A stretch of DNA of 32,488 nt from Promethearchaeia archaeon (GTDB lineage Archaea > Asgardarchaeota > Lokiarchaeia > Sigyniarchaeales > SOKP01), in assembly GCA_029856295.1 (NCBI GenBank), contig JAHQWS010000204.1:1-32488 (forward strand). Direction: 5' to 3'. Under the pieces are notes generated by a model. It was not told the DNA's origin and ran no database searches. It saw only the letters and a program-made list of their open reading frames with translations. Numbering within the stretch: position 1 is the first letter of the stretch; the number at the start of each line of letters is the position of its first letter. This document shows, piece after piece, positions 3,976 to 16,587 of the stretch. The position numbers were made by a program, and so were the translations under genes.

Positions 3976-4266
3976 ATGGGAAAGACTAAAAAAGTCGGCT
4001 GGACAGGTCGCTACGGAGCAAGATACGGTTCAAATGTACGTAAAAGAGTACGCTTAATTATGGAAAGAATGAAAGGGGGGAACATAAAATGCCCTCGATG
4101 CATGACTGTAGGTTCAGTTTATCGTGTCTCAACGGGGATTTGGCATTGTAAAAAATGCGGGGCTAAATTTACAGGTGGTGCATATGATATTGTTACTCCT
4201 AGAGGCGCAGAATCGTACCGAATTGCAAAGAGAAAACAACGTGAATTAGAAGTAATCGAAGAATAA
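3976..4266 (+). CDS. rpl37ae: 50S ribosomal protein L37Ae (eL43)
   Basis: TKKVGxTGRYGARYG, CPRC...GIWHCKKC zinc ribbon and FTGGAY. Confidence 0.96.
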   Translation: MGKTKKVGWTGRYGARYGSNVRKRVRLIMERMKGGNIKCPRCMTVGSVYRVSTGIWHCKKCGAKFTGGAYDIVTPRGAESYRIAKRKQRELEVIEE

Positions 4267-4529
4267 TGAGTAATTCTAATTACTTTTCTATAAAATCAAC
4301 AATAGAACTAACTTTTAAGGATTCAAACACTTGTACTTTAGCGTATAATTCGTTTTTACCAGAATTAAAAAAGGCAAAATCTCATAGATCAAGAATTTTA
4401 ATGGAAAAACTGGATAACGCTTTAATTTTTTCTATTGAAAGTGCTGATATAACCGCTTTTAGAGCGTCTATAAGCGATGTTATTAGCTTTGGAAAAATTA
4501 TTGATAGTACTTTAAAATTATGCGAGTAA
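4266..4529 (+). CDS. pcc1: KEOPS complex subunit Pcc1
   Basis: 87 aa with PE...RS and IESADITAFRASI (AxDxxxLRA motif); typical position between rpl37ae and pfdB; TAATG stop/start coupling. Confidence 0.8.
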   Translation: MSNSNYFSIKSTIELTFKDSNTCTLAYNSFLPELKKAKSHRSRILMEKLDNALIFSIESADITAFRASISDVISFGKIIDSTLKLCE

Positions 4530-4584
4530 AACATTTATAACTTATCATATTACAATTTTTATAAAAAAAAAACTATGAAGAATT

Positions 4585-15377: not shown

Positions 15378-16587
15378 ATGACCATTAAAAAAGTTGGAAT
15401 TTTAACGGGTGGCGGAGTCATGTTAAAGGATTTCTTTAGCTGCCGTATACTGCCCGGGTTTAAACAGCGTAATATATGGCATTATGTTGAAAGCTTTCGA
15501 TGCCGGTGTTGAGTGTGTCGGTATTAAAAAAGGATGGAAAGGATTTTTAGAAAACTTGACCATTCCCCTCAATATTGCAGAACACGATGATCTCCATACT
15601 ATAGGAGGAACTCTCTTATATACCAGTAGAACCAATCCTTTTAAAGGAGTTGATTCTAAAGAAGAAAAATCAAAAGAGTTAGGAAAAAAATTTGATGATC
15701 TCGGCATTGATGCTCTAATCGCGATTGGTGGAGATTTAAAATGGTTTCCATTTTAAACTAAAAACGATACCCTCGGAGTCGCGGATGCTTTATATAAATA
15801 TGCAAATGCTAAGGTCGTTGGATGTCCAAAGACGATTGATAACGATTTAGCTGGCACCCATTATACTTTCGGATTTTGGAGTGCCGTTCAACTAGCATCA
15901 AATGCCATGGACAATCTTACAACCACGGCTAGATCCCATCAAAGAGTCTTTATTGTCGAGATAATGGGACGAGATGCCGGATTTTTAACAATGTACAGTG
16001 GAATCTCTTCAGGAGCAGATATTATTCTTATACCAGAAACACCATTCGATTTTGAGAGAGATCTTGTAGGCGTGCTAAAAAAAAGAGCAAATGCCGGTCA
16101 TAAATATCATATGATTGCGTGCTCTGAAGGGGCCTATCCCGATCAAGCATCACTTAAGCGAGACTTTAAGACTATAACCCAGGAGACCATTGATAAATTA
16201 CCAAAAGATGTCTTCGGAAATCCAATGTTACCCGCATTGAATATTTCAAACATATTAGTAAAGGAGTTAAATCTAAGAGATGATTTAAAAGAAGTTTTCA
16301 AGAAAAATGGAGTCGATTTTGAATGCCGTAGTGTAGTGCTGGGTCATACTATGAGAGCGGGAACACCCAATTCTTTTGATAGAATATTAGGACTTAGATT
16401 CGGTTTAGCAGCTATGAAACTCGTGCTTGATGGGGAATTCGGAAAAATGGTTTCCCTCCAAGGTACTGATATTACCACTTTTCCGCTTGAAGAGGGGGTA
16501 AATAAGAAATATATCAAGCCCGAAAGCGATAAATTAGAACTTAGGGATTTAATGGTTAAAATAAGGTATAAATCAAGAGAAAATTAA
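15378..16587 (+). CDS. pfp: Phosphofructokinase (PfkA family, PPi-dependent signature); three exons join(15378..15417,15449..15733,15764..16587), 382 aa
   Basis: Joined translation: MTIKKVGILTGGG-D-CPGLNSVI...GGTLLYTSR...LIAIGG-D-DTLGVA...GCPKTIDND...TFGF...SHQRVFIVEIMGRDAG...LGHTMRAG. Exons 40+285+824 = 1149 nt = 383 codons including the stop. Confidence 0.9.
15418..15448 (+). other. Putative BHB intron 1 (31 nt) in the pfk mRNA
   Basis: Central helix GCGG(15412-15)/CCGU(15443-46); bulges AG^U and AU^A; inner hairpin CA-GUUAAAG/CUUUAGC-UG; outer exon helix CGGGUG/C-GCCCG. Removal gives GGA GAC TGC (GGGDCPG). Confidence 0.85.
15734..15763 (+). other. Putative BHB intron 2 (30 nt, in-frame TAA) in the pfk mRNA
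   Basis: Perfect 10-bp inner hairpin UUUAAAAUGG/CCAUUUUAAA; bulges AG^A and AA^A; central helix GUGG/CUAA (3 pairs plus a G.A mismatch); outer helix AUUG/CGAU. Removal gives GGA GAC GAT ACC (GGDDT). Confidence 0.82.

Follow-up and report, generated by a model that had tools for sequence, protein, structure and literature searches.

How can a central glycolytic gene be expressed when its coding sequence lies in three pieces? The question is raised by the phosphofructokinase (PFK) gene on the forward strand, at 15378-16587, of contig JAHQWS010000204.1 from a Promethearchaeia archaeon (assembly GCA_029856295.1); the whole stretch of 32,488 nt analyzed from this contig is referred to here as the window. 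Two short inserts, at 15418-15448 (intron 1) and 15734-15763 (intron 2), separate the three pieces. Judged from the comparisons described below, intron 1 is very probably an archaeal bulge-helix-bulge (BHB) intron within the coding sequence of the only PFK gene detected in the genome, and this Asgard-type archaeon probably splices some of its messenger RNAs (mRNAs). The source genome comprises 3.24 Mb in 337 contigs, with 32% G+C and a completeness of 72%.

The pieces of the gene and the reading frame

Exon 1 (15378-15417) was delimited from the open reading frame (ORF) and from the N-termini of orthologues. It begins with an ATG preceded, a few bases 5', by the ribosome-binding motif GGTGA, and comprises 13 codons followed by the first base (G) of an Asp codon; the aligned N-termini of intron-free PFK orthologues start in the same way. 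Read without splicing, the frame from the ATG at 15378 gives MTIKKVGILTGGG and then continues off-frame until a TGA at 15510-15512 (unspliced frame 15378-15512), as a preliminary description of this DNA had noted. Exon 2 (15449-15733), translated from 15451, matches positions 11-101 of the 277 positions of Pfam PF00365 (74.1 bits), and exon 3 (15764-16587, stop codon included), translated from 15766, matches positions 103-276 (184.5 bits). The family match across the two exons leaves no gap in the profile; thus, only the two Asp codons at the joins are absent from the protein. Exon 3 also matches positions 105-323 of 325 in the NCBIfam model PFK_mixed, with a score that falls under the whole-protein cut-off because exon 3 alone was scanned.

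Intron 1 comprises 31 nt and is a phase-1 insert that splits G from AC, i.e., it follows the first base of the Asp codon in the motif GGGD/CPG. It is absent from most relatives, and its excision opens the coding sequence. When both introns are removed computationally, a coding sequence of 1149 nt (382 codons) without an internal stop is obtained. In the alignment with the intron-free orthologue L003 from the same genus, 358 of the 392 columns are identical, as are the residues across both junctions. The preliminary description had held that deletion of 15418-15448 yields GAC, that a shift of one base yields TAC (Tyr) or GTC (Val) instead, and that the cuts restore the Asp of GGGD. The codon arithmetic is correct, and the same two bonds are fixed by intron-free orthologues with 92-96% amino-acid identity in exon 3.

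The sole gap in the alignment with L003 is an indel of 10 residues in a variable loop of exon 2 (approximately 15640-15690), where the window lacks 10 residues of a Lys/Glu-rich loop relative to L003 to L006, all from the same genus. Short and long forms of this loop are both widespread among PFK relatives, and the difference looks like an ordinary protein indel rather than an intron.

The fold at intron 1 and its conservation

The minimum free energy (MFE) structure of 15400-15462 computed with ViennaRNA is a BHB structure of -18.3 kcal/mol. In the central helix H, the exon strand GCGG (15412-15415) pairs with the intron strand CCGU (15443-15446) through G15412-U15446, C15413-G15445, G15414-C15444, and G15415-C15443. 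This helix is flanked by a 5' bulge, A15416 G15417 ^ U15418 (15416-15418), and a 3' bulge, A15447 U15448 ^ A15449 (15447-15449). The inner helix h' with its hairpin (15419-15442) comprises the pairs C15419-G15442 and A15420-U15441, one bulged U, and a 7-bp stem closed by a GAUUU loop. All of these elements had been drawn in the preliminary description, which proposed the folding of this segment, and they are present both in the sequence and in the MFE structure. The outer, exon-exon helix h, drawn between 15406-15411 and 15450-15456 with U15451 bulged, is likewise present, but the MFE structure pairs 15406-15411 with 15451-15456 by way of a 4-nt 3' bulge (AUAC). The label "canonical" given to this BHB is slightly generous, as the outer helix needs either a bulged U or the wider bulge.

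The predicted cuts, between 15417 and 15418 and between 15448 and 15449, follow the second base of each bulge; they join G and AC into GAC (Asp) and open the frame of 382 codons. A slightly stricter version of the BHB motif is found at about 4 in 10,000 position-length combinations of the genome (366,571 matches over both strands and 137 lengths), and the BHB of intron 1 coincides exactly with the boundaries set independently by protein homology. A search of the whole window at the Rfam gathering thresholds returned no match. Group I and group II self-splicing introns, which possess a ribozyme core of hundreds of nucleotides, were ruled out on the basis of this result and of the 31-nt size of the insert.

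Relatives were collected by an exon-3 search of 40 related genomes, 38 of which contain the gene, and as 80 named loci from a species-representative genome collection, with record titles bearing Promethearchaeota and other Asgard names. Some genomes were obtained by both routes, and the removal of duplicates left 20 distinct insert-bearing sequences. Among 109 PFK loci covering the intron-1 site (L030 stops before the site and is not counted), an insert of 31 or 32 nt is present at 28 and absent at 80, and one locus is masked. The 80 loci without an insert read an uninterrupted GGN GGN GGN GAY TGY CCN, and the inserts split G from AY of the Asp codon. Both inserts of the window are absent from its closest relatives, L003 to L005 (94-96% amino-acid identity in exon 3).

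With boundaries set by the codons alone, the central helix retains four pairs in all 20 distinct sequences (80/80 cells). Opposite the exon strand GCGG, the intron strand reads CCGU, CCGC, UCGU, or CUGU; in L056, exon GUGG faces intron CCAC, a C-G to U-A change on both strands of the helix. The first two inner pairs, C-G and A-U, are replaced by U-A and U-A in four sequences, and the hairpin or inner stem of L037, L019, L021, and L056 differs in sequence with pairing retained. The 3' bulge begins with AU, AC, UU, AA, or AG and is always followed by A. In 20 of 20 versions of intron 1, the homology-defined ends lie two bases into each bulge, and the same holds for four other introns described below.

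Covariation was computed on a plain MAFFT alignment of the 20 distinct inserts (18 pairs, 360 cells). The BHB structure is paired in 87.8% of the cells, compared with 32-53% after a shift of the partners by 1-3 columns. Two-sided changes occur at seven of the 18 pairs (15 cells); the inner helix h' is 86.3% paired, with changes on both sides at six of its eight counted pairs. The covariation score of 0.232 exceeds the mean of the shuffles (0.160), and on four of five covariation measures none of 500 shuffles reaches the observed value. The compensatory changes that the preliminary description had suggested looking for in homologous inserts are thus found among the 20 distinct versions.

Several observations weigh against the interpretation of intron 1 as a BHB intron. 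The folding energy does not reach significance (z = -1.60; an equally good fold was obtained in 12 of 200 shuffles), and the case therefore rests on position and on the comparison with relatives: the BHB stands beyond chance by its position and by covariation, not by its folding energy. The outer helix is imperfect, with its bulged U15451 or 4-nt bulge, and while 81.7% of its cells are paired, it shows no two-sided change because both of its strands are coding. The fifth covariation measure, which counts further pair types, does not exceed the shuffles (333 of 500). Applied to the 20-sequence alignment, RNAalifold does not return the BHB; instead, exon GGCGG pairs with exon CUGCC, accompanied by the hairpin, and the single-sequence MFE structures of at least L006 and L009 likewise favor this exon-exon helix. 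All of the sequences derive from metagenome-assembled genomes. Finally, in this 72%-complete genome a single paralogue of the tRNA-splicing endonuclease EndA was found, and the ligase RtcB was not found.

The covariation term of the exon-exon helix amounts to just -0.23 kcal/mol, no pair in it has changed on both sides, and the codons that form it (Gly and Cys-Pro) are also present in intron-free genes. The pentamer CUGCC is present twice within 15440-15455, 10 nt apart, one copy belonging to the 3' end of intron 1 and the other to the start of exon 2. Either copy can thus serve as partner for the run of Gly codons in exon 1, and the competing helix arises from this choice. This helix is read here as a competing conformation and not as the selected one, and as such remains a real caveat. 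A different explanation builds on it, namely that the insert is removed from the RNA by another nuclease and ligase route acting on the hairpin while GGCGG/CUGCC holds the ends. The preference of RNAalifold and of some single-sequence MFE structures for this helix with the hairpin looped out would agree with such a route, as would the failure to find RtcB in the incomplete genome. However, beyond the helix having no two-sided change and sharing its codons with intron-free genes, the intron strand CYRY varies only in ways that keep its pairing with exon GYGG, and the homology-set ends fall two bases into each bulge in every version of intron 1 and in the four other introns. To our knowledge, no other archaeal system for the precise excision of segments of about 30 nt has been described. 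Removal by a route other than EndA is accordingly considered unlikely.

A further possibility is that the insert is kept in the mRNA and that the ribosome frameshifts inside it or hops over it, as in gene 60 of phage T4. In favor of such recoding, the insert of the window has no stop in the exon-1 frame and contains a stable hairpin. Against this, the DNA holds no contiguous Asp codon (GAY), so the D of GGGD could not be restored, and inserts of 31 and 32 nt would need different shifts. Stops in the exon-1 frame were read by eye in L019, L021, and L037, and intron 2 contains in-frame stops in the window, L016, and L018. Bypass of the T4 gene 60 type relies on matching take-off and landing codons, and its product needs no residue that is absent from the mRNA. 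Programmed translational bypass of this kind was rejected, since a matching GGA landing codon is missing beside the 3' junction and G and AC must first be joined for the Asp codon to exist. Recoding in general is regarded as extremely improbable.

The inserts could also be inactivating insertions, such as scars of small mobile elements, that leave PFK a pseudogene in the carriers. In the DNA, PFK consists of one frame of 44 codons plus two more frames, gene callers would miss it, and the carriers are all metagenome-assembled genomes; these points are compatible with a dead gene. Yet all 17 carriers that were tested have an open exon 3, in which the ratio of nonsynonymous to synonymous substitution rates (dN/dS) has a median of 0.064 and a maximum of 0.142 (78 of 136 pairs with dS below 3), with synonymous sites near saturation; between the window and L006, dN is 0.045 and dS 1.56 in exon 3. 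The PFK exons are thus under strong purifying selection. The insert persists as 20 distinct versions with compensatory changes, its removal is exact to the base, and the exon-3 search of the window's own genome gave one PFK match. Inactivation is therefore very unlikely, and a BHB intron remains the preferred reading.

The distribution of the introns among relatives is patchy. On a quick maximum-likelihood tree of 96 distinct exon-3 proteins, a minimum of 18 changes is required for intron 1, which 22 of the 94 distinct rows that could be scored carry, and a minimum of 14 for intron 2. This tree has 38 unresolved forks among 93 inner branches, and fewer changes are forced by its starred branches. 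A cautious conclusion is that the PFK introns underwent several independent gains or precise losses.

Intron 2, further genes, and the splicing machinery

Intron 2 (15734-15763, forward strand) comprises 30 nt, a length that keeps the frame, is likewise in phase 1, contains an in-frame TAA, and parts GGA G from AC GAU within a relaxed BHB. In its central helix, GUGG (15728-15731) faces CUAA (15758-15761) with three pairs and a G.A mismatch. A perfect 10-bp hairpin (h', 15735-15757) directly follows the 5' bulge; the bulges read AG^A and AA^A, and the outer helix, of 4-5 bp, joins 15724-15727 to 15765-15768. Intron 2 is found at 19 of 110 loci as 14 distinct sequences, in which the G.A mismatch is constant; L032, L034, and L093 keep two central pairs only. 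Over the 14 sequences, 94.4% of the cells are paired, against 35-46% with slid partners, and one pair only shows two-sided changes. The support for intron 2 is weaker than that for intron 1, and its motif is relaxed. It was also recovered blind by the genome scan described below, and both PFK introns share the phase and the exon context GGYGGAG^AC. In a blastn-short search of the genome with either intron plus flanks, chance matches of 12-20 nt only were obtained, and there is no sign of recent intron copying within this genome.

Comparable inserts interrupt other coding genes. In the same genome, a 30-nt BHB insert lies in a thiolase-like gene (G000:C147:4217-4246, minus strand; L113 1217-1246), with H formed by GGUA and UACU and bulges AU^A and AA^A. 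It falls between ...LLIGN and MDHFEG..., is present in G011, and is absent from the orthologues of G001, G005, and G010. Another 30-nt BHB insert, in a flavin-reductase-like gene (G000:C337:5009-5038; L114 309-338), has UGGA paired with UCCA and bulges AA^A and AA^A; it is also found in G001 and is missing from the six other orthologues compared. A third case concerns rtcB itself in the same-genus genome G005 (G005:C13; L112 359-387), where a 29-nt insert with a canonical BHB sits within the Tyr codon of GGVGY-DINCG and splits the gene. Its H is a perfect 4-bp helix (UUGG with CCAA), the bulges read AU^A and AA^A, and the hairpin has 8 bp. G001 and G006 have no such insert. Were it spliced, production of the ligase mRNA would require the ligase itself. 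In total, five introns of about 30 nt are documented in four genes (two in PFK and one each in the thiolase-like gene, the flavin-reductase-like gene, and rtcB of G005).

The genome scan, run on both strands, looked for BHB motifs that on excision would bring two open frames together. Joins at the predicted cut were no commoner than at cuts shifted by 1-3 nt (4269 vs 4138-4314), and the same held for tighter scans (795 vs 749-838) and for a narrow motif (67 vs 63-73); the scan therefore lacks statistical power, and junctions of neighboring genes make up the bulk of its candidates. Among 143 narrow-motif candidates, six picked by eye were translated. Two of these, the inserts in the thiolase-like and flavin-reductase-like genes, were compared with orthologues, and both were confirmed; the other four looked non-coding or were left aside, so that this selection is not a census.

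The enzyme expected to act on such structures is encoded in the genome. An ORF of 200 codons on contig C6 matches PF01974 with 106.8 bits and TIGR00324 with 120.9 bits (cut-off 59.6), identifying an EndA gene. Two EndA paralogues of about 200 residues occur in four of five same-genus genomes, a finding that fits the two-subunit, broad-specificity splicing endonuclease ascribed to Asgard archaea (PMC5829648). RtcB, too, was found in four of these five genomes. An internal check of the cut geometry comes from a tRNA-Leu gene in the genome of the window (contig C110), whose intron lies at the standard position 37/38. Nucleotides 32-35 form its H, the bulges read AG^A and AU^A, and its geometry and bulge letters are the same as those of PFK intron 1. 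This is the sole clean 37/38 calibration case, as ARAGORN called 25 tRNAs only, six of them with introns, and its intron placements are unreliable, e.g., for the tRNA-Ala on C84, which was placed at a non-standard position.

Two side observations concern the surroundings. By the ARAGORN calls, fourteen intron-free tRNA genes crowd into approximately 2 kb at G000:C308:6269-8171, and the 11 tRNAs in the rest of the genome include the six interrupted ones; the cluster might represent a tRNA array of mobile or viral origin, or else a contig in the bin that is foreign to it. In the window itself, the genes around PFK are of archaeal type (ZPR1, ribosomal protein L37ae, prefoldin, CGI-121, Sua5, and subunits of pyruvate:ferredoxin oxidoreductase), and a gap of approximately 320 nt without an ORF of at least 90 codons lies between the L37ae and prefoldin genes (4267-4584).

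Proposed splicing, known systems, and implications

The comparisons show the fold, its conservation with compensatory changes, the agreement of the cuts with intron-free orthologues, the purifying selection on the exons, and the EndA gene; how the transcript is cut and rejoined, by which enzymes, and what becomes of the intron are inferred. In the pre-mRNA, the Gly-codon run of exon 1 would give one strand of the central and outer helices, and the intron would give the other strand of the central helix along with the hairpin. EndA would cut after the second base of each 3-nt bulge, at 15417^15418 and 15448^15449. An RtcB-type ligase would then join the exons and probably circularize the 31-nt intron. 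The union of G with AC would create the Asp codon of GGGD/CPG and restore the frame, and removal of the relaxed BHB intron at 15734-15763 in the same manner would yield an mRNA coding for a PFK of 382 residues.

Among known systems, a close parallel is the intron of cbf5 (Watanabe 2002; Yoshinari 2006). This gene, encoding a pseudouridine synthase, contains a BHB intron in its pre-mRNA in Crenarchaeota (Yokobori 2009, PMC2738675). As in cbf5, a short intron lies inside an archaeal coding sequence, a BHB (relaxed in cbf5) marks the exon-intron boundaries, and gain and loss are patchy among relatives; the cbf5 intron is cut by a two-subunit splicing endonuclease, and the same is predicted for PFK. 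The PFK case differs in its host gene, which has no sequence relation to cbf5, in its phylum (Promethearchaeota, Asgard), in having two introns in one gene and more of them elsewhere among the genes of this genome, and in the near-strict BHB of intron 1.

Besides cbf5, an intron is known in the 5' untranslated region (UTR) of HVO_1309 in Haloferax, and more archaeal mRNA BHB introns probably remain to be found (PMC7714728, PMC10485636). For HVO_1309 of Haloferax volcanii, cleavage by EndA was shown in vitro (PMC7714728), and the spliced form dominates in RNA-seq data (PMC10485636). Like this intron, those of PFK would be EndA substrates in an mRNA. Unlike them, the HVO_1309 intron occupies an untranslated leader and interrupts no reading frame, and it belongs to a euryarchaeon with a homodimeric enzyme.

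In eukaryotes, HAC1/XBP1 mRNA is cut by Ire1 at paired stem-loops and sealed by tRNA ligase or RtcB, with a change of reading frame. It shares with the PFK case a small non-spliceosomal coding intron, a protein endonuclease, and exon sealing of the tRNA type; Ire1 and its motif differ, and HAC1/XBP1 splicing is a regulated stress response.

A 2026 preprint describes very many tRNA introns in Asgard archaea, gained repeatedly at sites able to form a BHB. The PFK introns resemble these in motif, in predicted enzyme, and, for the tRNA-Leu intron of this genome, in bulge letters; they differ in that the host is an mRNA, so that the cuts must also preserve the reading frame. In the main text of this preprint, "mRNA" occurs zero times and "protein-coding" once, for neighboring genes. 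No report of BHB introns in Asgard protein-coding genes was found in the full texts searched, supplementary tables aside. The mechanism is textbook and the kind, mRNA BHB introns, is very rare; the host and the setting are new.

In the portions of the literature covered here, protein-spliced introns in archaeal mRNAs are reported for very few genes. The PFK locus adds a well-supported example from central glycolysis in an Asgard-type archaeon, i.e., in the prokaryotic group closest to eukaryotes, and offers a concrete system for studying how introns enter and leave coding sequences without a spliceosome. There is also a practical consequence: genes with such introns are called as fragments or pseudogenes, and metabolic reconstructions may wrongly score PFK, thiolase, or RtcB as missing. 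A further question posed by this case is how splicing can proceed where transcription and translation are coupled.

On a broader and more tentative view, held at slightly less than even confidence, the lineage may carry a population of BHB mini-introns of about 30 nt that enter and leave protein-coding genes, with mRNA splicing by the tRNA machinery as a matter of routine. If so, mini-introns would settle wherever an exon supplies half of the BHB motif, a pattern to which the location of both PFK introns in GGYGGAG^AC corresponds. The inclusion of rtcB itself would then create a possible feedback loop, and the splicing of mRNAs by the tRNA machinery would belong to the routine of gene expression in prokaryotes closely related to eukaryotes.

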